This document shows, piece after piece, positions 4,360 to 36,881 of a stretch of 64,000 nt of DNA. The position numbers and the translations under genes were made by a program. The notes beneath the pieces are model-generated. The model searched no databases. It worked only from the letters and a program-made list of their open reading frames with translations, and had not been told where the DNA came from. Where the stretch lies: assembly GCF_055900595.2 (NCBI RefSeq), contig NZ_CM148325.1; one strand, 5' to 3'. Within the stretch, counting starts at the first letter, position 1; every line of letters starts with the position of its first letter.

Positions 4360-4525
4360 GGCGCACCTCCAGCGGTTTGCAGGAGACGAACACCAGCGGG
4401 AAACCCGCCAGCAGGCCGCGAGCCTCTGTCTCTGTTGTCGCCAGTACGGATACCAGACGCAGTGGCTGGATCTCGCGCAGCAGGCGGTTGGAACGGGCGT
4501 TCAGGAAGGTGTAGAGCTTAGGCAT
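4352..4525 (-). CDS. Hypothetical small protein, 57 aa (not in ORF track because <60 aa)
   Basis: Hand translation: MPKLYTFLNARSNRLLREIQPLRLVSVLATTETEARGLLAGFPLVFVSCKPLEVRHGA. SD GGAGGT 4 nt before the ATG at 4525. Overlaps both neighbours by 8 nt. Confidence 0.5.
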
Positions 4526-4694
4526 GGTTCACCTCCTCTACCGGGGTGCTACGTGGGGGATTGAACGACTGAGCGATAACGCTCAGTGCCTGCTTACCTT
4601 CGGGATGCGCAAGACGGTAGTAAGTTAACAGGACTTGCTCCTGTGGGCTGAGATCGTCCCACGTGAGAGTTGTGTTACTATTAGCGGTAGCCAT
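4518..4694 (-). CDS. Hypothetical small protein, 58 aa
   Basis: ATG at 4694 preceded by GAGGT (MATANSNTTLTWDDLSPQEQVLLTYYRLAHPEGK...). The track's longer form starts at 4757 without a good SD. Confidence 0.5.
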   Translation of the reverse strand: MATANSNTTLTWDDLSPQEQVLLTYYRLAHPEGKQALSVIAQSFNPPRSTPVEEVNHA

Positions 4695-4836
4695 AGCATT
4701 ACCTCGATTAATGTTGTGGTTAGATGCCTTGGCAGTGTTCGCGCACTGTCGGGGCATTGTTATTTATGTCATGTGATAGTAATGTGTCATCACACAGTAC
4801 TACATTAACCTGAGTGTGATTTAGGTGTCAATACAC
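4695..4836. promoter_or_regulatory. AT-rich divergent promoter/operator region between the two island operons
   Basis: Inverted repeat TGTGAT...ATCACA (tgtcatgtgatagtaatgtgtcatcacacag) and further GTGTGA copies between the start codons at 4694 (-) and 4837 (+). Confidence 0.45.
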
Positions 4837-5004
4837 ATGAATGAAAGAAGAGGAAATCCTCCGTTTCAGTTTCGACTCGATCCTGAACTGAGAAACGCGA
4901 TGGAAGAAGCTAAAAAGCAAGATGGTGATGAATCACTGGCTGCGTGGATTAAGCGAATTATCAGAAAAGAGCTTCAGTCACGGGGTATAGAACCAAAAGA
5001 TTAG
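4837..5004 (+). CDS. Arc/MetJ-type ribbon-helix-helix DNA-binding protein, 55 aa
   Basis: Hand translation: MNERRGNPPFQFRLDPELRNAMEEAKKQDGDESLAAWIKRIIRKELQSRGIEPKD, matching the RHH pattern F-x-L-R-L-x-x-E-L...SLN/A.I..RL. First gene of the + operon. Confidence 0.55.
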   Translation: MNERRGNPPFQFRLDPELRNAMEEAKKQDGDESLAAWIKRIIRKELQSRGIEPKD

Positions 5005-5050
5005 CAGATAGGTATATACTTTGAATAAAGAGTATTAGAGGTAAAAAATA

Positions 5051-5239
5051 ATGGCGAAGAATAGCAGTCCTGCCAGCCGATACGGTATCAAGGTCGTAAA
5101 AAGAGACAGTATGAGCGGGCAGTTTGTACCCGTCGAAATGAAGCTGGACGGCCCGGAAGGTGAGCGTGTGATTAAAAAGTCGGCAGAGCGTATTTATGCC
5201 AGACACAACAAAGTCATTAAGGCGCTGGCTAACCGATGA
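5051..5239 (+). CDS. Putative antitoxin partner of the Doc toxin (family not recognised; not Phd/YefM-like)
   Basis: 62 aa. SD AGAGGT upstream. Stop overlaps the Doc start (ATGA at 5236-5239), a typical toxin-antitoxin coupling. Confidence 0.5.
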   Translation: MAKNSSPASRYGIKVVKRDSMSGQFVPVEMKLDGPEGERVIKKSAERIYARHNKVIKALANR

Positions 5240-5613
5240 TTGATGCACATTTGGTGATTGGAATTCACGACTTTATTCTTGCTCATGAGCCGGGATTGGT
5301 TGGTTATCAGGATGCTGGCCGGGTCGAGGCAACACTGGCACGGGTGGATAACCGTATTCTGTATGAGCAGATGAATGATATTTTCCAGATCGCCGCATCT
5401 TATGCGGTTGCCATCGCCAGAGGGCACGTTTTTGCTGATGCCAACAAGCGAACGGCACTGGTGACGGCGTTGACATACCTTGATATGCAGGGTGTGAACC
5501 TCAAGCGAACACAAAAGCTGGAAGATATTATGGTGGATGTGGCTGAGGGAACGCTAAATCTGGATGATTTAGCCGATATTTTCTATACCCTTAGTGATGT
5601 AAATGCTTCCTGA
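5236..5613 (+). CDS. doc: Doc (death-on-curing) family toxin, Fic fold
   Basis: 125 aa. Conserved Doc motif HVFADANKRTA (HxFx[DN][AG]NKR). Size and layout parallel P1 Doc. Confidence 0.8.
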   Translation: MIDAHLVIGIHDFILAHEPGLVGYQDAGRVEATLARVDNRILYEQMNDIFQIAASYAVAIARGHVFADANKRTALVTALTYLDMQGVNLKRTQKLEDIMVDVAEGTLNLDDLADIFYTLSDVNAS

Positions 5614-5618
5614 CGTTA

Positions 5619-5643
5619 CAGCCCGACAGATCGGGCTGTTTTT
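5619..5643. terminator. Bidirectional hairpin terminator between the convergent Doc gene and the 78-aa gene
   Basis: cagcccga-caga-tcgggctg followed by TTTTT on + strand; A-run on the other side. Confidence 0.6.
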
Positions 5644-5645
5644 AA

Positions 5646-5882
5646 TTATGCCGCCTCAATACCCGCGTTGGTTAACATATAGTGGCCCCAGTGGTTTTTT
5701 TTCAGGTAACCGGCCAGTTCCATCTGCGTCACAATAAATTCAGCGTTAACCATTTCTATACCTGCGTAGTCGGCCAGATCGCGCAGCGGCCATGTGCTGC
5801 GAACGCCGACGCTAACTATGGTGTCTCTGATGCGGCGAGCGGTATCGGTCATTGGGCGGGTTCTGGCTGCCTGAATAGTCAT
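5646..5882 (-). CDS. Hypothetical protein, 78 aa, possible winged-helix DNA-binding protein
   Basis: ATG at 5882 with SD AGGGGA. Sequence ...LRDLADYAGIEMVNAEFIVTQMELAGYLKK... Lies directly after L on the late strand. Confidence 0.45.
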   Translation of the reverse strand: MTIQAARTRPMTDTARRIRDTIVSVGVRSTWPLRDLADYAGIEMVNAEFIVTQMELAGYLKKNHWGHYMLTNAGIEAA

Positions 5883-5998
5883 GGTATTTTCCCCTGTAGA
5901 TTCTTTCTGTTAGGTCAGACACTAACTCTGGTGGGGAAGGGGCATCCAGCGTTCAGATGAGGCGATACGGTGATGCGCATCGCATATCCGTACTCTTT

Positions 5999-6466
5999 TT
6001 ATACCAGAACAAACGTACTGCGCGGCTTGCCCAGAATATCCCGCACGGCGAAGCGGGCATCGCGCGCCAGATCGTCGGCGGTGCTTTCCTTCTGTTCCGC
6101 CAGTTTGCTGCCGTGGGCGGTGGCATCAAAGTTACGGTAGCGTTCCAGCAGGTTTGCGTGCGTCAGGCTGTACACCGCGTAGCGGTAGCGGTGCAGGTTA
6201 ACGCTTTCGCCGTCCAGCCGTTCGGTAGTAGTTTCCACAATGCCGGTTGTGCCACGGCTTTCCTGCTCCAGCCGCCATTCCCGCAGGTCGTCGTTCACGC
6301 TGGCCAGCGCAATCAGCAGCGCCTCGCGCAGCCGTTCGTTGGTGATGGTGCTGTCCAGCCGTTGGGTTGCACGCAGATGTTGCGTATCGATATTGGGAAA
6401 GAAAGGGTGGTTGCTGATAACCAGCCCCGGCAGACTGGCGGCGGGGGCAACCTGAATAAAGCTCAT
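5999..6466 (-). CDS. Head completion/stabilisation protein (gpL-like)
   Basis: 155 aa from the ATG at 6466 (MSFIQVAPAASLPG...) with SD GGAGA. Position after small terminase M. The track's longer form begins at an upstream alternative start. Confidence 0.7.
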   Translation of the reverse strand: MSFIQVAPAASLPGLVISNHPFFPNIDTQHLRATQRLDSTITNERLREALLIALASVNDDLREWRLEQESRGTTGIVETTTERLDGESVNLHRYRYAVYSLTHANLLERYRNFDATAHGSKLAEQKESTADDLARDARFAVRDILGKPRSTFVLV

Positions 6467-9214: not shown

Positions 9215-10999
9215 ATGCCGCCAGACATCGAAAAACATCTGCTTGCCCTTCAGGACGAAGATCCACGCCGTAAAGCCCGCTATCTGTACTGGCAGGGTTT
9301 TCGCATTGCGCGGATCGCTGAACTATTGGGGGTGAAAGTTACCACGCTGCATAGCTGGAAGCGGCGCGATGGCTGGGACGAATCCGCCCCGCTGGAGCGG
9401 GTGACGGCGGTGACCGAAGCGCGGCTGATCCAGCTCACGGTGAAGGAAAATAAGGAGGGAAAGGATTTTAAGGAGATCGACCTGCTCTGGCGGCAGATGG
9501 AGCGCGGGGCAAGGGTTGAACGCTATCAGCAGGGGGGCAATGAGGTCGACCTGAACCCTGCTCTTGCGAAGCGTAACGCCGGGCCGCGCAGACAGCCGGA
9601 AACCAACCATATCAGCGAGGAGCAGGCGGAGAAGCTGAAACAGTTATTTCTGGACGGACTGTATCCGCACCAGAAACACTGGTACCGCGCCGGGCTGGAA
9701 CACCGTATCCGCGATATCAACAAGTCGCGCCAGATTGGGGCGACGATGTTCTTCGGGCGGGAAGGATTTATGGATGCGGTGGAGAGCGGGCGCAACCAGA
9801 TCTTTCTCTCGGCCTCCAAAGCGCAGGCGCACCAGTTCCGCCAGTACATTGTCGATTTTGCTCGTGAGGCGGATGTTGAGCTGAAGGGCGAAGTCATTCA
9901 CTTGCCGCATAATGATAGCCGGATGTATTTTCTCGGCACCAATGCCCGCACCGCCCAGACCTATCATGGCAACCTGTATCTGGATGAATACTTCTGGATA
10001 CACCGCTTTTTGGAACTGCGCCGTAACGCGGCGGGGATGGCCAGCCAGAAACGCTGGCGGCAGACCTACTTTTCCACACCGTCCAGCATTACCCACGAAG
10101 CCTATAAGTTCTGGACAGGGCAACTGTTCAACAAGGGCAGGCCGAAGAGCGAACAGATTCGACTGGATATCAGCCATCGGGCGCTGGCGGCGGGGCGTCT
10201 GTGTGAAGACGGCCAGTGGCGGCAAATCGTCACCGTTGAGGATGCCATCAATCAGGGTTATGACCTGTTCGACCTTGAGCAACTCAGGCTGGAGAACTCG
10301 CCGGAAGAGTTCGCCAACCTGTTTATGTGCCAGTTTATCGACGATACCGCATCGGTATTCCCACTAAGCATGTTGCAGGGTTGCATGGTCGATAGCTGGG
10401 AAGTCTGGGACGACTACAAGCCGTTTGCCCTGCGTCCGCTCGGCGAACGCTCGGTGTGGGTGGGGTACGATCCCGCATTAAGCGGTGACAGCGCCGGGTG
10501 CGTGATGGTCGCGCCGCCGGTCATTGAGGGCGGCAAGTTTCGGGTAATTGAAAAGCACCAGTGGCACGGGATGGACTTCGCGGCGCAGGCGGAAAATATC
10601 CGCAAAATTACCGAGCGCTATAACGTGACTTACATCGGTATTGACGTGACCGGCATCGGCCACGGCGTGCATCAACTGGTGAAACAGTTCTTCCCGGCAG
10701 TGCAGGCATTCTCTTATTCCCCAGAAGTGAAACAGCGTCTGGTGCTGAAAACGCTGGACGTTGTCCGTAAACGCCGACTGGAGTTTGACGCCGGATGGAC
10801 GGATCTGGCGCAGGCGTTTATGGCAATTCGCAAAACCCTGACTCCGTCCGGGCGTCAGGTGACCTTCGAGGCCAGCCGTTCGGAAGAAGTCTCCCACGCG
10901 GATCTGGCATGGGCGTGTATGCACGCCATTATCAATGAACCACTGGAAAGCTCCGGCGGCGCGAACAGCGGGCGGGGCTTAATTAAGGTGTACGGATGA
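9215..10999 (+). CDS. Terminase large (ATPase) subunit (gpP-like)
   Basis: 594 aa, similar to P2 gpP in size. N-terminal HTH-like region; Walker-A-like KSRQIGATMF. Confidence 0.75.
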   Translation: MPPDIEKHLLALQDEDPRRKARYLYWQGFRIARIAELLGVKVTTLHSWKRRDGWDESAPLERVTAVTEARLIQLTVKENKEGKDFKEIDLLWRQMERGARVERYQQGGNEVDLNPALAKRNAGPRRQPETNHISEEQAEKLKQLFLDGLYPHQKHWYRAGLEHRIRDINKSRQIGATMFFGREGFMDAVESGRNQIFLSASKAQAHQFRQYIVDFAREADVELKGEVIHLPHNDSRMYFLGTNARTAQTYHGNLYLDEYFWIHRFLELRRNAAGMASQKRWRQTYFSTPSSITHEAYKFWTGQLFNKGRPKSEQIRLDISHRALAAGRLCEDGQWRQIVTVEDAINQGYDLFDLEQLRLENSPEEFANLFMCQFIDDTASVFPLSMLQGCMVDSWEVWDDYKPFALRPLGERSVWVGYDPALSGDSAGCVMVAPPVIEGGKFRVIEKHQWHGMDFAAQAENIRKITERYNVTYIGIDVTGIGHGVHQLVKQFFPAVQAFSYSPEVKQRLVLKTLDVVRKRRLEFDAGWTDLAQAFMAIRKTLTPSGRQVTFEASRSEEVSHADLAWACMHAIINEPLESSGGANSGRGLIKVYG

Positions 11000-11976
11000 A
11001 TAACTCAATGGCTTTCACCTTCGGTGAACCTGAAGCCCTGCTGGACAGGCGGGAAATACTGAACTATCTGGAGTGCGTGGACTTTGGCAAATGGTATGCG
11101 CCGCCGGTGGATTTTAATTCGCTGGCGCTGTCGTTCCGCGCTTCGGCGCATCATACCAGCCCGATCTGCGTGAAGCGCAACGTGCTGGTTGGTACCTTCA
11201 TACCTCATCCGTTGTTGACCCGGCAGGCGTTCAGCCGCCTTGCGCTGGACTATCTGGTATTCGGCAATGCCTATCTGGAGCGGCAGGATAACCGGCTGGG
11301 CCAGCCGTTAACGCTGGTGCCTGCGCTGGCGAAGTATGTCCGGCGCGGCAAGGCGCTGGACAGCTATTTCTTTGTTCAGCCCGGTAAAGTGGATCATGAG
11401 TTTGCGTCGGGCAGTATCGGCCACCTGCTGGAGCCGGATATCAATCAGGAAATCTACGGCCTGTCGGAATACCTCTCTGCGCTGAACGCGGCATGGCTGG
11501 ATAACTCCGCCACGCTGTTTCGCCGTCGTTACTACAAGAACGGCAGTCATGCCGGTTTCATCCTCTACCTGAGCGACCCGGCCCACAACGAGGCGGATAT
11601 TGGGGCGTTACAGGAAGCGCTAGCGAACAGCCGTGGCCCCGGCAACTTCCGCAATCTGCTGATGTATCTGCCGAACGGCAAGCCAGACAGCGTAAAGGTT
11701 ATCCCGATTGGCGAGGTGGCGGCGAAAGATAACTTCTCCGATATCAAGAGTGTCAGCCGTGACGACCAGTTAGCTGCGCACCGGGTACCACCTGCGCTCA
11801 TGGGCGTGGTACCGAGTAACGCCGGTGGCTTTGGTGATGCCATCAAAGCGGCGAAGGTATTCAACTGCAATGAGATCGAGCCGCTACAGGAACGGTTCAA
11901 GGAGCTGAACGACTGGCTGGGGCTGGAGGTTATTCGCTTCAAAAAGTACCGCCTTGCCGACGACGATTCAGAGTAA
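10996..11976 (+). CDS. Portal vertex protein (gpQ-like)
   Basis: 326 aa, translationally coupled to the terminase (ATGA overlap); position as in P2 Q. Confidence 0.65.
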   Translation: MNNSMAFTFGEPEALLDRREILNYLECVDFGKWYAPPVDFNSLALSFRASAHHTSPICVKRNVLVGTFIPHPLLTRQAFSRLALDYLVFGNAYLERQDNRLGQPLTLVPALAKYVRRGKALDSYFFVQPGKVDHEFASGSIGHLLEPDINQEIYGLSEYLSALNAAWLDNSATLFRRRYYKNGSHAGFILYLSDPAHNEADIGALQEALANSRGPGNFRNLLMYLPNGKPDSVKVIPIGEVAAKDNFSDIKSVSRDDQLAAHRVPPALMGVVPSNAGGFGDAIKAAKVFNCNEIEPLQERFKELNDWLGLEVIRFKKYRLADDDSE

Positions 11977-12046: not shown

Positions 12047-12295
12047 CGCCTTCTCACCGCCAGAATCCCCGGTCAGCACCGCCAGCGCGCGGTTGTGACC
12101 CCGCCACGCCTGCGCAGTAAATAGATCGCTTTTTTTGCACTGGTGCGTAAGCGTCGGAGCGGGCCATAACGGGAGGGCGTGGTCGGGTTGCAGTTGCAGC
12201 AGAATCATGCGGATTTATACGCCCTGTGTATGCGCCAGAGACGATCGGGAGGGCAATGCCACGATCCTTTCGGTATTTTTGGATCGCCTGTCGGG

Positions 12296-12581
12296 AAAAG
12301 GTAACCTCAGTAATTAGCAGTAAAAATAATGCTTATTCTATTGTTTATAAAAGAGAAATTTGGTTACCCCTAAAAGGTAATCTGAGGTAACCCAAAAGGT
12401 AACCTGTTTTATATTTTCATATAAATCATGATGTTACAAATTAGAAGACATCACTATTATAAAAGGTAACCTGATTACGCTTTGGTTACCAAAAGATTAC
12501 CTTTCTCTGTTTTTGAAAAATCCTTTTTATTCATTAAGTTATTTTGATTTTTCGTTGCAGGTTACTAAGGTTACCTTTTTC
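12296..12581. repeat. Array of about 9-10 copies of (A)AAAGGTAAYC in both orientations; candidate protein-binding sites
   Basis: Direct copies near 12296, 12372, 12385, 12394, 12461; inverted copies near 12362, 12484, 12497, 12560, 12570. AT-rich; no ORF of 60 aa or more. Confidence 0.6.
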
Positions 12582-12850
12582 CGAAGTCCCCACGGACTTT
12601 GGTATATATAGATAGGTTAAAAAGTAGCCGTTATGTTTGCCAGCTATTTACTTCCCATTCTTCCACTGGCCAGCATGTTAATATGCCCGGTAATGATAAC
12701 TAGTTGCCATTGGGTTACTTTCTTCTGTGGACGGTAAAACTGACGGTAAATTGGGTTGTGGGTCTCGATTTAGATTAGTAAAATCAAGTGATTAAGTCGA
12801 CTGTAGATAATCGAGTGGGAATGATTTGATCCCTGCACTATGAATTAGCA

Positions 12851-12880
12851 AAACCCTCTGTTACTACAGAGGGTTTTTTA
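12851..12880 (-). terminator. Hairpin terminator downstream of yfgI (bidirectional shape)
   Basis: aaaccctctg-ttacta-cagagggttt flanked by T/A runs. Confidence 0.6.
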
Positions 12881-12917
12881 TACTCACGAATCATAGGATT
12901 GAAGTTACTGACATCGC

Positions 12918-13457
12918 TTAGTTAAACCAGCTGTCCGATTTGTTTTCTTCTGCTTTGCCCACGCTTTTCATCAGATCGCGACCGCCTTCAGTCATATTCC
13001 TGTTTGCGTCAGCTTCAGATTGCACCACATCGGTTTGCGCAGCTTTGTGCTTCAGTTCCTGATCGATAAATTCGTTTTCTCGCTTAACGCGGGCTTCTTC
13101 TTTCGCCAGCGCCAGTTTTTGTTTCTGAATCTCTAAGCTGCGTAGCTCATCTTCATAACTTTGATCGCGTTTCTTGTCCGCAGTGGCTTCGGCGTCCAGT
13201 TTATCCTGACGAGCTTTCTTATTCGCCGCTGCCGTTGCCGCTCTTTTATTAGCCGCGGCCTGGGCGTTTGCGCGACGTTGCTTCTCTTGCTGGATTTCCC
13301 TGTTGCGCTCCGCGACCCATTCGTCATGCTGCCTTTGCTCTTCGTTTTTACCTTGCTGTTCCGCTTCTGCGACAGCAGAGAGTTGATCCTGCAATGATGA
13401 GGCGATAGCCGGATAGCTTAAGGAGGCTAAGATGGCGCAAAGAAAAACTTTCTTCAT
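12918..13457 (-). CDS. yfgI: YfgI, secreted protein of unknown function
   Basis: 179 aa with signal peptide (MKKVFLCAILASLSYPAIA); K/E/A-rich. Recognised as E. coli yfgI by sequence and neighbourhood. Confidence 0.85.
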   Translation of the reverse strand: MKKVFLCAILASLSYPAIASSLQDQLSAVAEAEQQGKNEEQRQHDEWVAERNREIQQEKQRRANAQAAANKRAATAAANKKARQDKLDAEATADKKRDQSYEDELRSLEIQKQKLALAKEEARVKRENEFIDQELKHKAAQTDVVQSEADANRNMTEGGRDLMKSVGKAEENKSDSWFN

Positions 13458-29837: not shown

Positions 29838-31853
29838 TTACAACACCTCGCGAACCGAGATCCCCAGCCGCTGCATTCGTGATAGCAGCGTGGTGCGCTT
29901 CATCCCTAATCGCGTCGCCGCGCCACGGGGCCCGGCAACAATGCCATTGGTTTCTCGCAATACCTGAACAATGCGCTGACGTTCTTCTTCGTCATTCTCT
30001 GGCGTCGTCGGGTGCAGTAACTGCGCCATTGAACTGCGAAGCGCCGAATTTTCATTTAACGTCGGCAGTAAACGGCTTTGGCGGACATTAAGATGTAAAT
30101 TCAGACTGTTACCGCGAGTCAGTAATACCGCTCGCTCAATCACGTTTTCCAGCTCGCGCACGTTGCCCGGCCAGTCCCACGACATCAACTGGCGTAGCGC
30201 TTCTGTTGGAATGGCATCAATTGTGCGATTCATATGGCGCGCCATTTTTTGTGTAAAATGTTTTGCTAAAAGAGGGATATCTTCCGGACGGTCGCGTAGC
30301 GGCGGCAATTCCAGTGGAAAGACGTTAAGTCGATAAAAGAGATCGCTGCGAAACTGGCGATCTTCTACCATTTGCCACAAATCACGGTTGGTGGCGGCAA
30401 TGACTCTGACATTCACCGGGATCGTTCTACTCCCACCGAGACGCTCAATTTCCCGCTCCTGTAATACGCGTAGCAGTTTGGGCTGAAGTTCTAACGGCAG
30501 ATCGCCAATTTCATCGAGAAATAACGTGCCGCCATCGGCAATTTCAAAACGACCACGATGAGTGTTAATCGCGCCAGTAAATGCCCCTTTGTCGTGACCG
30601 AATAACTCACTTTCCAGAAGACTGGCGGGGATAGCGGCGCAGTTGATTTTGACCAGCGGCTTGTCGCGTCGCGGGCTCAGTTGATGGATCGCCCTGGCGA
30701 TCACCTCTTTGCCGGTTCCGGTTTCACCACAAATCAACACCGTACTGTCGCTCTTCGCCACAATATCTACCTGCTGGAGTAAATCTTCCATTGCCTGGCT
30801 TTGGTAGATAATGTCACCGACGCCCAGATTCGAAAGGAGCTGCTCGCTAAGCTGGTGATTTTCTTGCTGTAAGCTTTCCTGCAAATCGGTCATGCTACGC
30901 CAGGCATCGGCATTGCCAACGGCAATAGCGATGCGATCGGCAATATGTTGTAGTAGCTGGCAGTTTTCCTCACTAAAGAGAGTGGGAGAGGTATGCGCCA
31001 GCAACAATGCACCCGGTGTATGGTTGCCAAAGGTGAGCGGTATAAGGAGCGCAGATTCGCAGCCGTTAGATGCAAGTAAGTGTAATAACGGGTCGCGTTG
31101 CCAGAGAAACAGATCGTCTGCACGGTGCGTCAAGGTCGGTTGTCGGGTTTGTAGCGTTTGTGTCAGCAATACACTTTCGCCAGGCATACAGCGTGGCAGA
31201 CACGCACAATGTGAGGCAGAAAGATCGCTGCACCACAGGCTGAACTTCTCGTTCTTTCGATGATCGCCCAGTACCATACTGACTGAAGCCAGACCGAAAA
31301 AATGATGGATCTCACGAGCGACGTCAGCGATCAGATCGTCGAGATCAAGATGTGACAACACTGCATTAGTGATATCCACCAGTACCCGATGATGATCGCG
31401 ATCTTTCTCCAGCAAACGCAGCGCCACCTGCTGTTCTTCATCATTGAGCCATGATTGCAGAACCGGAGTGATTATGTGTGCCAGCCAGTTAAACAGTGTG
31501 CAATCCAGGGGAGTAAAACGACTGCCGTGGGTGCGAATAAAGCGTAGCTCCGCCATTCCACTACTGCCGAGAAGGACGGCGTGGCGCGAATAATCGACCA
31601 TCTCGCCCTGATACTCTGTTGTTGCCGTCACATCGCTGCCATCATCATGGTAGCGGTAATAGAAGTTGCTTTTGAGAACATGCAGTTCAATAAGTTGTAC
31701 CGGGCTGAACGGCGGCGGCAGCGGGATGAAGGCGCGTAATAAAGACGCCTTGCCGTGTTTCTGCGCTAACCGCTCCGCGAGCATTCCGTTTACCGCTTCA
31801 ATTGTTATTCCTTGTGGCGGGGCAAACATCGCCTCGTCTGACATAGCCATCAA
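29838..31853 (-). CDS. hyfR: Sigma54-dependent transcriptional activator HyfR (FhlA-like)
   Basis: 671 aa. AAA+ sigma54-interaction motifs (GETGTGKE, GAFTGA) and C-terminal HTH. Confidence 0.95.
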   Translation of the reverse strand: MMAMSDEAMFAPPQGITIEAVNGMLAERLAQKHGKASLLRAFIPLPPPFSPVQLIELHVLKSNFYYRYHDDGSDVTATTEYQGEMVDYSRHAVLLGSSGMAELRFIRTHGSRFTPLDCTLFNWLAHIITPVLQSWLNDEEQQVALRLLEKDRDHHRVLVDITNAVLSHLDLDDLIADVAREIHHFFGLASVSMVLGDHRKNEKFSLWCSDLSASHCACLPRCMPGESVLLTQTLQTRQPTLTHRADDLFLWQRDPLLHLLASNGCESALLIPLTFGNHTPGALLLAHTSPTLFSEENCQLLQHIADRIAIAVGNADAWRSMTDLQESLQQENHQLSEQLLSNLGVGDIIYQSQAMEDLLQQVDIVAKSDSTVLICGETGTGKEVIARAIHQLSPRRDKPLVKINCAAIPASLLESELFGHDKGAFTGAINTHRGRFEIADGGTLFLDEIGDLPLELQPKLLRVLQEREIERLGGSRTIPVNVRVIAATNRDLWQMVEDRQFRSDLFYRLNVFPLELPPLRDRPEDIPLLAKHFTQKMARHMNRTIDAIPTEALRQLMSWDWPGNVRELENVIERAVLLTRGNSLNLHLNVRQSRLLPTLNENSALRSSMAQLLHPTTPENDEEERQRIVQVLRETNGIVAGPRGAATRLGMKRTTLLSRMQRLGISVREVL

Positions 31854-33044: not shown

Positions 33045-33586
33045 AGCTGCTCCTTAGCCACCCGGGGTTCATCTGTGTCGTCGTTGATCAGCGTCGCGCG
33101 TTGTTTGCATTCCGGGCAGACGCTCGCTTGCGCCCACAACATTTCGCGGTTTTGTGGTGCATTTTGTTGCTGTGCCAACAGTTCTGCAGCCAGTGCGACG
33201 GTTTTTTGCGGGGCAAACGGGCGTTCGCAACGGCTGCAACGTTGTAGATGGAACGTCGCGCGGGTATAGAGATCGGCTTTATTGGTGACGGTCAGTTCAA
33301 AGTTATTGGTAAGCTGAATGGCTCTGGTCGGGCACACTTCTTCACAACGTCCGCAGTAAATACAACGCCCCAGATAGAGCTGCCAGGTGCGCGTATTTTG
33401 CTGGTCGTCGGTCTGGATAGTCAGCGCATTTGCCGGACAAGCACAGGCGCAGGCACCGCAGGCAATACATTGGCTGGGCATCAGGTCCGGTTTCCCGCGA
33501 AAGCCTGGGCTGACCTCCAGTGGCGCGAAGGGATATTTCACCGTCGCGGTTCCGGCGCGCATAATAGTTTTCAGTAACTTCAGCAT
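33041..33586 (-). CDS. hyfH: Hydrogenase-4 ferredoxin-type subunit (2x[4Fe-4S])
   Basis: 181 aa with CxxCxxCxxxCP motifs. Confidence 0.9.
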
Positions 33587-33595
33587 TTTCTGTCC

Positions 33596-35311
33596 TTACT
33601 TCAGCGGCGAACGGTTACGATCAATGCCGTAGCGTTCGATCTCTTTATACGGCACGGTTTTTGACTGGCGCTTGCGCACATCAACCAGCGTCACACGGTC
33701 GGTACAGGAGTAGCAGGGATCAAGGCTACCGATAATCAGCGGTGCGTCAGAAACGGTATTGCCGCGCAGCATGTAACGCAGCACTGGCCAGTTGGCGTAG
33801 GTGGCGGCACGACAGCGCCAGCGGAACAATTTTTGGTTATTACCGAGCATGCTCCAGTGCACGTCTTCACCGCGTGGCGCTTCAACAAAGCCCAGCGCGA
33901 ATGCGTGAGGTTTATAGCTAAAGCCTTCGGTCAGCAGTGGGGTATCCGGCATGTTGTCGAGGGCAAATTCCAGCATTGCCAGCGAATCAAACGTCTCTTT
34001 GACACGGACCATCACGCGGGAGAAGACATCGCCGCCGGTAAAGGTAAACAGCGTTTTTGGAATATTGCCGTAGTCGGCGTAGGGGTGATCAAAGCGCAAA
34101 TCACGGGCAAAACCACTGCCACGGATCAGCGGCCCTACGGGGCTATAATCACGGGCGATTTGTCGGTCGAGAATGCCAATGCCCTGAGTGCGTTGTTCCA
34201 TATTCGGCGTGGCAAGCAGCATCTCTACCAGCTCCGACACGTCGGCGCGCATCTCGCGCACCAGTTTCATCGTTTGCAGACGTTGCTCTTTGAGAATATC
34301 GCGGCGAACACCACCAATCAGATTCAGACCGTAGGTTTTACGCGACCCGGTCAGCAATTCCGCCATCGTCATCGACTTTTCCCGCACGCGGAAAAATTGC
34401 ATAAAACCGGTATCAAAACCAACAAAATGGCAGGAGAGGCCAAGATTGAGCAAATGACTGTGCAGCCGTTCGACTTCCAGCAGAATCGAACGAATGGTAT
34501 GCGCTCGTTGTGGCACCTCAATCCCCAGTGCATTTTCAACCGAGTTGGTATAGGCCACACTGTGGGCAAAACCGCAAATCCCGCACACGCGGTCCGACAA
34601 GAAGGTCACTTCGTTGTAGCCCATCCGCGTTTCTGCCAGTTTCTCCATGCCGCGATGGACATAAAACAGGCGGTAATCAGCATCGACAATTTGCTCGCCA
34701 TCCACAAACAAGCGGAAGTGACCTGGTTCATCGGAGGTGATATGCAGCGGGCCAACAGGGATCACCCGCGCATCGCTGTTGCCCTCGTTGATAAACGGAT
34801 ACGTTTCGGTATCAGTCGTCGGTTCAGGGCGCAGTCGATAATCCATCGCGTCTTTGCGCAGCGGATGCATATCTTCCGGCCAGTCATCGGGCAACACCAG
34901 GCGACGCTGATCCGGCAGGCCAACCGGAATCAGCCCGTACATATCGCGAATTTCTCGCTCGCCCCAGACCGCGGCAGGGACGCGCGGTGTGACTGACGGA
35001 AACTCCCGACTGTCGGCATCGACCAGTGCCTTCACCACGATCCAGCATTTTTCGGCCCCTTCCATTGAAAGGGCATAATAAACCGCGTAATGACCGTTAA
35101 GTGTCCGCTCGTCGTTGCCAAACAGGACCGGAAGCCAGCCATCATGTTGATAATAAAGATAATGTACAACGTCAGGCAGCAGATTTATTTTCACCGTAAT
35201 GGTGACCTGTTCAGGCGTTTGTCGCTCTTCATCCAGCACCGCGCCGGGGAACTGCGTTTTCAGGGCGGCGAGAATCGCTTCGCCACGATTTGACGATGAA
35301 TTAACGTTCAC
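33596..35311 (-). CDS. hyfG: Hydrogenase-4 large (NiFe) subunit
   Basis: Start assigned to the GTG at 35311 with SD GGAGAAA ([14 protein letters not shown]...). Overlaps the hyfF stop. The exact start is uncertain. Confidence 0.85.
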
Positions 35312-36881
35312 TGTGTTTCTCCGAAACAGATGCGGTGCCTGAAGGCAAAAAATCATGCCAGGTGCTACGTTGTGCAGGCAGGTCGTGCGTCCCTGAGAGG
35401 ACTATAGTGGAAGCGCCCGCCAGGATCCTGATGACAGGTTGTGGAATATGCGTTCCCATCGCCAGCATCATGACCAGCAGAATCACCATTGGCGAGGTGG
35501 TCAACCAGCCAAGTTCACCCCGGTTAACGGCCTGCGGCGGTTTCGCCATTAATACCCGCGCAGCCATCCGTACCAGGCCCGCCAGCACCAGCGTTAACAG
35601 CAATAACAGCAGGACGATAATCAACAGGTGATTACGAGCCAGTCCGGCGGTAACGGTCATAAATTCGCTAAGAAAAATGTTGAAGGGCGGCATCCCGGCC
35701 AGCGCCAGCGCACCGCCGCCAAACAGCACGGCGGTAAATGGCATGATTTTGAGCATTCCGCAGACGACGTTGAGATCGCGCGTGCCGTACTTGAGCAGTA
35801 CATTGCCGGAACCGCAGAACAGCAGCGTTTTTGCCAGACTGTGGTTTAAGGTGTGCAGCAGCGCAGCAAAAATTCCCAGCGGCCCGCCAATGCCTAGCGC
35901 CACCGCGACCAGTCCCATGTTCTCCACGCTGGAGTACGCCAGCAGACGCTTAATGTCCCGCTGTACCAGAATGAAAAATGCCGCCACGGCAACCGACAAC
36001 ATGCCGAAGATGAGCAACAACCGGTTGGGGAAATCGCTGCCGATGGCCTGGCAAATAATGATGTAATAGCGAATCAGCACCAACAGCGCGCAGTTCAGCA
36101 ATACGGCGGAGAGCAGGGCGCTGACCGGACTCGGCGCTTCACTGTGAGCATCCGGCAGCCAGGCGTGCATGGGAAATAGCCCGGTTTTGGTGCCAAAGCC
36201 AATTAGCACAAACACAAAGGCCAACAGCATTAATGTTGGGTCAAGCAAGGACGATTGCTTAAGAACCTCGCTCCAGAATATCGCCATTTCTGCCTGCGGC
36301 ATAACGCTGGCGGCGTTGGCGTATACCAGCACGGTACCGAACAGACCAAAAGCGACACCAACAGTACAAATAATGATGTACTTCCATGCAGCTTCCAGAG
36401 ATGAACGCTGACCGTAAATGCCTACCAGAAACGCCGAGCTTAAGGTGGTGGCTTCGATTGCCGCCCACATCACAATCAGGTTATTGCTGGTAACAACCAG
36501 CAGCATGGTGAACAAAAACAGATGGAAGAAACCGTAGTAATCGCACAGCGTAACGGGTGAAAGCTCGCCGTGAGCCACTTCATGACGCATGTAGCCAATC
36601 GAGTAAACACCGGTGAGAAAGCCAATCACACCAAGAATGGCGAGGAACAAACCGCCCAGACCATCAATATGAAGCCACAGTCCCGCAGCGAATATTTCTC
36701 CCGCATCAGCGGCAGTTTGGACCACCCACAGTGCCAGAATCAGCAGCAGTGTGATCCCTAAGCTATGTAGTACTGTCACCGTGCGAGTCGCAGAGTATCC
36801 CCGTTTCCGGCAGGCAAAACAGAGCAGCGAAAAAAGCAGCGGCGTGAGCAGGAGTAAAGCGAACATCACAGAATAACTCAT
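35301..36881 (-). CDS. hyfF: Hydrogenase-4 membrane subunit F (NuoN/L antiporter-like)
   Basis: 526 aa polytopic membrane protein. Confidence 0.9.

Follow-up and report, generated by a model that had tools for sequence, protein, structure and literature searches.

What does a dense array of short repeats do when it lies at the junction between a phage and the bacterial chromosome? The question was raised by a 64,000-nucleotide stretch of DNA (NCBI RefSeq assembly GCF_055900595.2, contig NZ_CM148325.1; hereafter the window), in which the original prediction had described repeats in both orientations at positions 12296-12581 and had offered three readings, namely arm-type recombinase sites, iterons or a repressor-binding array, adding that they could be part of an attachment site. 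Our analysis supports the iterons, whereas arm-type recombinase or attachment sites fail. We propose, with a probability of roughly 0.75, that the array is the iteron-bearing, cis-acting replication origin of a phiCTX-like phage of the P2 family, that it is bound by the primase-helicase of this phage, and that it is not a part of attP. The proposal draws on sequence comparison, on structural modelling of the protein and on analogy with known replicons.

Statistics and anatomy of the array

The word GGTAACC occurs 13 times in the window compared to 4.4 expected from shuffles, none of which reached 13, and seven of the 13 copies fall in 12300-12575. An unbiased scan of 6- and 7-mers returned the same word as the top local cluster of the window (7 per 300 bp, Poisson p ~6e-13), and AAAGGTAACC, with one mismatch or fewer, gave nine matches in the window, six of them inside the array region. 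Chance and low complexity as the source of the array are ruled out by the shuffles and the cluster scan. Degenerate copies were counted where they aligned with sites of related phages (AGTAAT at 12309, GGTAATC at 12376, GTTACA at 12433, GATTACC at 12495 and GGTTACT at 12560). Seven exact and about five degenerate copies bring the array to 11-12 sites in both orientations within 294 bp (12291-12584), confirming the dense, two-orientation array that had been predicted. Its description as AT-rich also held, with 67% A+T in the array region compared to 47% in the whole window and with three spacers reaching 75-85%. The statement that no open reading frame (ORF) of 60 aa or more is present was nearly right: only two ORFs touch the array, both at its left edge, and the one of 54 aa (12226-12390) just clips its start, but the other, a TTG ORF (12135-12317) that overlaps the start, is exactly 60 aa long.

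As delimited by the k-mer scan and by end-to-end alignment with seven other phage arrays, the whole array (12291-12584) forms a pseudo-palindrome, which we propose as ori. Its outer ends are an inverted repeat (TCGGGAAAAGGTAACC at 12291-12306, GGTTACCTTTTTCCGA at 12569-12584), and the sites are mostly in plus orientation to the left and in minus orientation to the right of an A+T-rich centre. From the left, an outer iteron pair on the plus strand (12300-12315), composed of GGTAACC at 12300-12306 and a degenerate AGTAATT at 12309-12315 spaced 9 bp apart, aligns with the pairs of phages phiCTX, RSY1 and Smp131 and of the IMG/VR locus L030. It is followed by a first spacer of 80-85% A+T (12316-12361) and by an inner cluster (12362-12404), in which GGTTACC at 12362-12368 has the opposite orientation and a triplet is phased at 10-12 bp (GGTAATC at 12376, GGTAACC at 12386 and again at 12398). 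The central region (12405-12464; 75-80% A+T), our proposed unwinding region, contains the degenerate GTTACA at 12433-12438, in the same place where the prophage of Escherichia coli L725 has GTTACC. Beyond the centre the order is mirrored: an inner cluster (12465-12501) with GGTAACC at 12465-12471 and, in opposite orientation, GGTTACC at 12484-12490 and GATTACC at 12495-12501, then a third A+T-rich spacer (12505-12559; ~75% A+T), and finally an outer pair on the minus strand (12560-12575), in which GGTTACT at 12560-12566 and GGTTACC at 12569-12575 are again 9 bp apart.

A search of the array region in Rfam returned no family match, and a non-coding RNA was rejected on this ground. A promoter array was likewise rejected because promoter-like matches are at background, with one match against 1.7 expected; this single match is weak and lies in the central spacer (12433-12460). 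The copy of the array in the window contains no exact IHF or DnaA consensus. Could the array instead bind repressors or transcription factors, serve partition in the manner of a centromere, or act like crr in copy control by 'handcuffing'? Repeat arrays of such size do these jobs in plasmids, P4 requires a second iteron element (crr) beside its ori, and the weak promoter-like match in the central spacer might be taken in the same direction. However, promoter-like matches are not enriched and no gene starts beside the array in the window. Moreover, each genome has a single array, and the phages with an array have no partition genes in common. We consider such a role unlikely.

The prophage and its right end

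As judged from its sequence context, the array lies within a P2/phiCTX-like prophage, in its right end; this prophage is integrated in the 3' end of guaA. Upstream lie the genes of a P2-type terminase, P (9215-10999), and of the portal, Q (10996-11976), followed by a terminator and by a P2-type (P2/186-type) cos (GGCGTGGCGGGGTCACAAC, 12092-12110, minus strand) that matches phiCTX cosR, Smp131 cos and the cos core of RSY1; 190 bp separate cos from the first iteron. With yfgI at 12918-13457, the predicted location between the portal gene and yfgI was accurate. Among 5426 complete E. coli genomes, only three contain the array region (96% identity), each of them together with the prophage; 5365-5368 genomes match only the flank on the yfgI side and are without the array. 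As the prediction required, the array is part of the prophage, and strains without the prophage lack it.

Given that the window begins within the prophage and that the primase gene lies outside it, the initiator was taken from the three 96%-identical relatives, which cover only 86-91% of the window's prophage part. In the closest of them, E. coli L725 (96% identical at the array region), the prophage reads from guaA to yfgI as int, an AlpA-like excisionase gene, a DUF7673 gene, the gene of an 884-aa toprim protein, ogr, tail and head genes, P, Q, cos and the array.

The prophage and its relatives also carry cargo. A variable block in the window (4360-6000), between the tail/lysis and head-completion genes, includes a Doc-family toxin gene (5236-5613; TIGR01550, E 4e-25), in place of which L725 encodes a RelE/ParE toxin and an HTH antitoxin. 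Elsewhere in the L725 prophage, in parts that lie beyond the window or at its edge, genes for a nucleoid-associated protein and a GTP pyrophosphokinase are paired in the interval from the early genes to gene D (L002 19944-22030), and an 'abortive phage resistance' (AbiTii-like) gene lies among the tail genes (L001 7159-8064). The gene pair and the AbiTii-like gene are likely defence cargo.

The array and the attachment site

Placing the junction by alignment to E. coli, as had been suggested, succeeded: aligning K-12, the window and the left junction of L725 revealed a 14-bp att core (attR; GAGTGGGAATGATT) at 12813-12826 on the plus strand. The same letters form the 3' end of guaA in K-12 and attL in L725, and the prophage ends at this core. 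The array lies within the last 530 bp of the prophage, its nearest site ~230 bp and its farthest ~520 bp from the core. A different repeat is found closer by. Two direct copies of GACGGTAAA, side by side at 12730 and 12742 (12730-12750, plus strand), are 65-85 bp from the core and are the only exact copies in the window. At the integrase end of the L725 prophage, GACGGTAAA is again clustered between core and int, in both orientations and with five to six copies, two of which are inside the start of int itself (L002 14345-14760), and this end has no GGTAACC or GGTAAY cluster. The arrangement of the GACGGTAAA repeats on both arms suggests that they are likely the true arm-type integrase sites, which likely serve a P4-like (DUF4102-type) integrase.

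The array could still be imagined as part of attP, with arm-type sites for the integrase or for an excisionase of the AlpA/Cox type. Indeed, it occupies the P-arm side of the prophage end, the array of RSY1 begins ~125 bp from the attP core, and the AlpA-like excisionase gene adjoins int in L725. Nevertheless, the int-proximal arm of L725 is without a copy, and the ~230-520 bp between array and core also speak against this reading. The array keeps its motif in phages that have unrelated integrases and insert at tRNA-Ser, tRNA-Thr or guaA. In Smp131, for which attP was mapped experimentally at 30738-30783 (PMC3931495), the array (33054-33330) is 2.3 kb away with three genes between, and in phages of the L030 type it lies across the early region from int. 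Since the motif is absent at the int end of L725, GACGGTAAA is present on both arms, and the array is kept with unrelated integrases, the array is not attachment DNA. Mapping of the core against K-12 and L725 and the different repeat on both arms largely refute a place within attP, which is now very improbable. The suggestion of an attachment site has to be abandoned also on its own terms, because a prophage boundary without matching sites, such as the other boundary in L725, had been named in advance as evidence against it.

The 3' end of guaA and the guaA-yfgI spacer (window 12784-12900) are an integration hot spot. Many E. coli genomes have another prophage at the guaA-yfgI junction, with holin, endolysin and DUF2514 genes beside yfgI, and phage TL-2011b carries ~99 bp that match window 12803-12900.

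Arrays in related phages

Full-length homologues of the 884-aa toprim protein, with 45-58% identity, are encoded by Ralstonia phage RSY1, Pseudomonas phage phiCTX, Stenotrophomonas phage Smp131 and Escherichia phage ESSI2_ev239, and a homologue with 34% identity by Pseudomonas phage phi3. A DNA search of a phage collection with the array region matched only the chromosomal flank and the cos-adjacent stretch (~12085-12141), which indicates that the array is too diverged for blastn. In phiCTX, RSY1 and Smp131 a GGTAAY array was the top k-mer cluster of each genome, with 12, 10 and 10 sites respectively; there is one array per genome, and outside it any 200 bp hold at most two copies of the motif. 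The gap patterns of these three arrays and of the window are near-identical (9 / ~66 / 11, 11 ... 12, 10 / ~54 / 9), so that the layout begins with a 9-bp pair, an A+T-rich spacer and a triplet phased at ~11 bp, accompanied by one site in opposite orientation; these elements then recur mirrored, up to a closing 9-bp pair. Eight arrays align end to end, and the conserved columns are the sites and the termini TCGGAAAAAGGTAAC / GTTACCTTTTTCCGA. The arrays are A+T-rich relative to each genome (63% versus 37% in phiCTX), and the long spacers of the phiCTX, RSY1 and Smp131 arrays contain consensus IHF sites.

The layout was found in every phage that encodes the 884-aa toprim primase-helicase and whose relevant region was captured; most of the 80 IMG/VR primase loci are prophage-form contigs ending at att, with the array at the far prophage end outside them. 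Where the primase is more divergent or its C-terminus differs, the unbiased cluster scan recovered the layout with other words. In phi3 the top cluster consists of 16-17 copies of GGAACA directly after the primase gene, and in ESSI2_ev239 the cluster is built from CRTCACA, both keeping the layout. The array word is GGTTACA in the IMG/VR loci L030, L033, L035 and L037, and GTAATA in L073. In the plasmid collection the primase occurs in only four records, all phage-genome-like, and they therefore offer no clean non-phage context.

In the GenBank record of phiCTX (NC_003278), positions 35100-35390, between attP and cosR, are annotated as 'region 3, R3 repeats' with two IHF sites. The GGTAAY motif, the layout and the attP-cosR position are as in the window, which makes region 3 the homologous element. 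The record labels the repeats without a function, and none was assigned to this array or to phiCTX R3 in the literature that we searched (original phiCTX papers aside).

What the array follows: cos or the primase gene

In the window and in L725, phiCTX, RSY1 and Smp131, ~180-220 bp separate the array from cos, always on one and the same side, and in five of the phages examined the array lies within ~180-500 bp of cos (in ESSI2_ev239, of the presumed genome end). Could it be a packaging accessory comparable to cosB, with sites for gpM (the small terminase) and IHF that aid terminase at cos? Besides the short and constant distance, such a role would fit the IHF sites in the arrays of phiCTX, RSY1 and Smp131, and the cargo insertions, which are on the far sides (between attP and array in Smp131, between cos and Q in RSY1 and phiCTX) and never between array and cos in the five genomes with the short distance. 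Additionally, it is ESSI2_ev239 and phi3, with their clearly different words, whose terminase and portal diverge most (34-43% identity).

Adjacency to cos, however, is not obligatory. In L030, L033, L035 and L037 a clear P2-type cos is present next to Q, 2.6-3.4 kb from the array. In the first three the array instead starts ~200 bp after the stop codon of the primase, ~3 kb from cos, with a 916-aa non-phage ORF, probably cargo, between array and cos. It lies ~1.1 kb after the primase gene in L037, and its placement in L073 is similar to the L030/L033/L035 type. For phi3 and ESSI2_ev239 the search for cos gave no confident position. A second argument against a cosB-like accessory comes from P2, which has a homologous terminase and the same type of cos, replicates by an A-protein rolling-circle mechanism, and in which the same k-mer scan detected no comparable cluster anywhere; only 213 bp separate old from cosR in P2. 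As a positive control, the scan recovered the annotated ori and crr of P4. The cos function of the P2 family has been assigned to a conserved core of ~55 bp that is common to P4 (cited in PMC3931495 and PMC5694545), which also counts against a packaging accessory. In lambda, cosB resembles the array in having repeated protein-binding sites and IHF near the cohesive end. Yet its three sites are immediately beside cosN, whereas the array has 11-12 sites that begin 190 bp away, can lie far from cos in related phages and does not occur in P2. Altogether the layout fits known origins and not cosB, and a cosB-like function seems decidedly improbable. Given that P2 is without an array, that the position of the array is loose with respect to both attP and cos, and that each genome has only one, the array goes with the primase-helicase module.

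Other features were noted around cos. To its right, the window (12092-12260) contains an inverted cos-like copy (GGCGTGGTCGGG, 12176-12187) on the strand opposite to cos GGCGTGGCGGGG, as well as a direct repeat, CGGGAGGGC, at 12170 and 12246. A comparable inverted cos-like repeat is located 50 bp from cosR in phiCTX (L005 9499-9510 / 9561-9572), whose record labels R4-R6 repeats across cos. The cos-side repeats of the window and the R4-R6 repeats of phiCTX could be real terminase-recognition elements. The ESSI2_ev239 record (NC_049392 / LR597637; L004 29129-29203) ends in an Illumina Nextera adapter, CTGTCTCTTATACACATCTCCGAGCCCACGAGAC...ATCTCGTATGCCGTCTTCTGCTTG, followed by poly-A, and this adapter-contaminated end may mark the physical end of the genome. 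Finally, the 916-aa ORF of L030 (6657-9407), a locus from an uncultured phiCTX-like phage, matched no PHROG and at most weakly resembles PADLOC candidates (PDC-S20, E 2.5e-6). Cargo or defence is its probable role, at a hot spot close to cos.

The primase-helicase

In the 884-aa protein, Pfam identified a toprim domain at residues 175-267 and a P-loop near residue 550, and PHROGs assigned the protein to phrog_1139, DNA primase. The toprim region aligns with the alpha protein of P4 (hhalign probability 88.6%, E 2.6e-6), and only this region does so. A sequence search with the primase against PDB chains gave no match. The C-terminal 455 aa (residues 430-884) were modelled with AlphaFold from an alignment of 39 sequences, reaching a pLDDT of 88.8. 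Over its full length this model matches the SCCmec helicase Cch (E 7e-12, TM 0.59/0.52); the next matches are SaPIbov1 Rep (E 2e-7), DNA-bound PriRep1 and the SaPI5 primase-helicase, and MCM, SV40 T-antigen, AAV Rep and poxvirus D5 come later. Sequence identity to the Cch and SaPI Rep proteins is only 11-13%. The last 80 residues are modelled as a small alpha/beta domain, and a fold search with the C-terminal 200 aa alone returned a weak Cch match and non-specific helical bundles. No sequence or fold similarity to the solved origin-binding domain of P4 was detected in the primase-helicase. Overall, the protein is a zinc ribbon and toprim primase fused to an AAA+ helicase of the Cch/SaPI-Rep type, with a winged helix-like domain at the C-terminus.

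Does this C-terminus read the iterons? The primase of ESSI2_ev239 is 52% identical overall, as similar as that of phiCTX, yet the word of its array differs, and only the last ~50 residues of the protein are selectively divergent. Across very few sequences and motif classes, this is suggestive of a primase C-terminus that covaries with the iteron word. The annotated primase CDS of Smp131 (L007 25406-28091) loses all resemblance to its homologues in the last ~100 residues, and its tblastn match falls into two pieces, probably due to a frameshift or sequencing error in the record.

Comparison with known origins

SaPI Reps are self-loading initiator helicases that bind 6-12 short iterons through a C-terminal winged helix; the iterons have opposite orientations on either side of an A+T-rich centre, and some of these helicases carry a fused primase (PMC9371898). 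In the window the architecture is alike, with seven exact and about five degenerate iterons in 294 bp, whose orientation is mostly reversed from one side of an A+T-rich centre to the other. A cognate AAA+ initiator with a predicted C-terminal DNA-binding domain is encoded in L725, its gene falling outside the window. The position relative to this gene varies. SaPI origins adjoin the initiator gene downstream, and so do the arrays of L030, L033, L035 and phi3, directly after the primase gene. In the phage of the window, by contrast, the array would be ~2.3 kb from the primase stop in the circle, with int and attP between. Further differences from the SaPI/Cch systems are the primase part, a zinc ribbon and toprim (DnaG-like) in the phage, the hosts of the window-type array, which are Gram-negative P2-like myoviruses, and the iterons themselves, which measure 7-10 bp and follow one another as a pair, a spacer and a triplet on each side.

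P4 is the second comparison, and like the phiCTX-like phage it belongs to the P2 ecosystem. Its ori has 8-bp 'type 1' iterons (TGTTCACC, compared to GGTAACC in the window), in both orientations as in the array of the window. The unit of P4 ori is a triplet at 10-11 bp, one opposite site, a spacer and a pair at ~10 bp, a site map that coincides with the arrays. P4 crr has 10 repeats in 300 bp, including 9-bp pairs, and lies directly after alpha, between alpha and attP. Whereas P4 has ori and crr as two separate elements, the phage of the window has one array resembling two inverted P4-ori units. The toprim domains of P4 alpha and of the phage protein are homologous, and no homology was detected beyond the toprim region.

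Discussion

How would the array act as an origin? After excision, the circle would have the order cos, array, attP, int, two small genes and primase, with the array ~2.3 kb from the primase gene. The comparisons show the anatomy and conservation of the array, its independence from attP, its occurrence together with the primase-helicase and the fold of that protein; from these we infer that the primase-helicase binds the array and that replication starts there. Contacts to the 11-12 GGTAAC(C) iterons would be made by the C-terminal domain of the protein. The iterons form two mirror halves; in each, an outer pair of sites 9 bp apart is separated by ~60 bp of A+T-rich DNA from an inner triplet phased at ~11 bp. 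One helicase ring could load itself on each half, so that two rings flank the central A+T-rich DNA. This DNA (12405-12464) would then melt, and the fused primase would start synthesis; bending of the spacers by IHF might assist. With only one array per genome, it is the sole candidate if the initiator needs iterons.

The element is thus, on our reading, of a known kind, an iteron origin of a self-loading primase-helicase, and no new mechanism is involved; the homologue in phiCTX has been annotated as repeats for decades. What is gained is a proposed function for a conserved non-coding block that is publicly unannotated or labelled only as 'repeats', as in phiCTX R3, and its separation from the real elements of the attachment site, which corrects a natural first guess. 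For the phiCTX-like phages this would define a compact replicon of ~300 bp and one gene, and the layout of a 9-bp pair, a ~60-bp spacer, an 11-bp triplet and their mirror image could serve as an annotation signature of the origin in this group. The origin layout of self-loading helicases of the P4, SaPI and SCCmec type would thereby extend to full P2-like phages.

A broader idea, which we put forward tentatively, is that the entire phiCTX-type branch of P2 phages, including those of Escherichia, Pseudomonas, Ralstonia and Stenotrophomonas and many uncultured phages, shares a single origin design. Two mirrored units similar to P4 ori would be combined with a toprim protein carrying a Cch/SaPI-Rep-like helicase, and the iteron word would have been swapped several times (GGTAAC, GGTTACA, GGAACA, CRTCACA, GTAATA) at fixed spacing. 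If this were true, the replicons of P4, of SaPI and SCCmec elements and of P2-like phages would be linked as one origin-initiator system, and the different words would provide natural specificity variants for how the C-terminal domain reads iterons. Moreover, the usual place of the array beside cos might couple replication of these phages to packaging.
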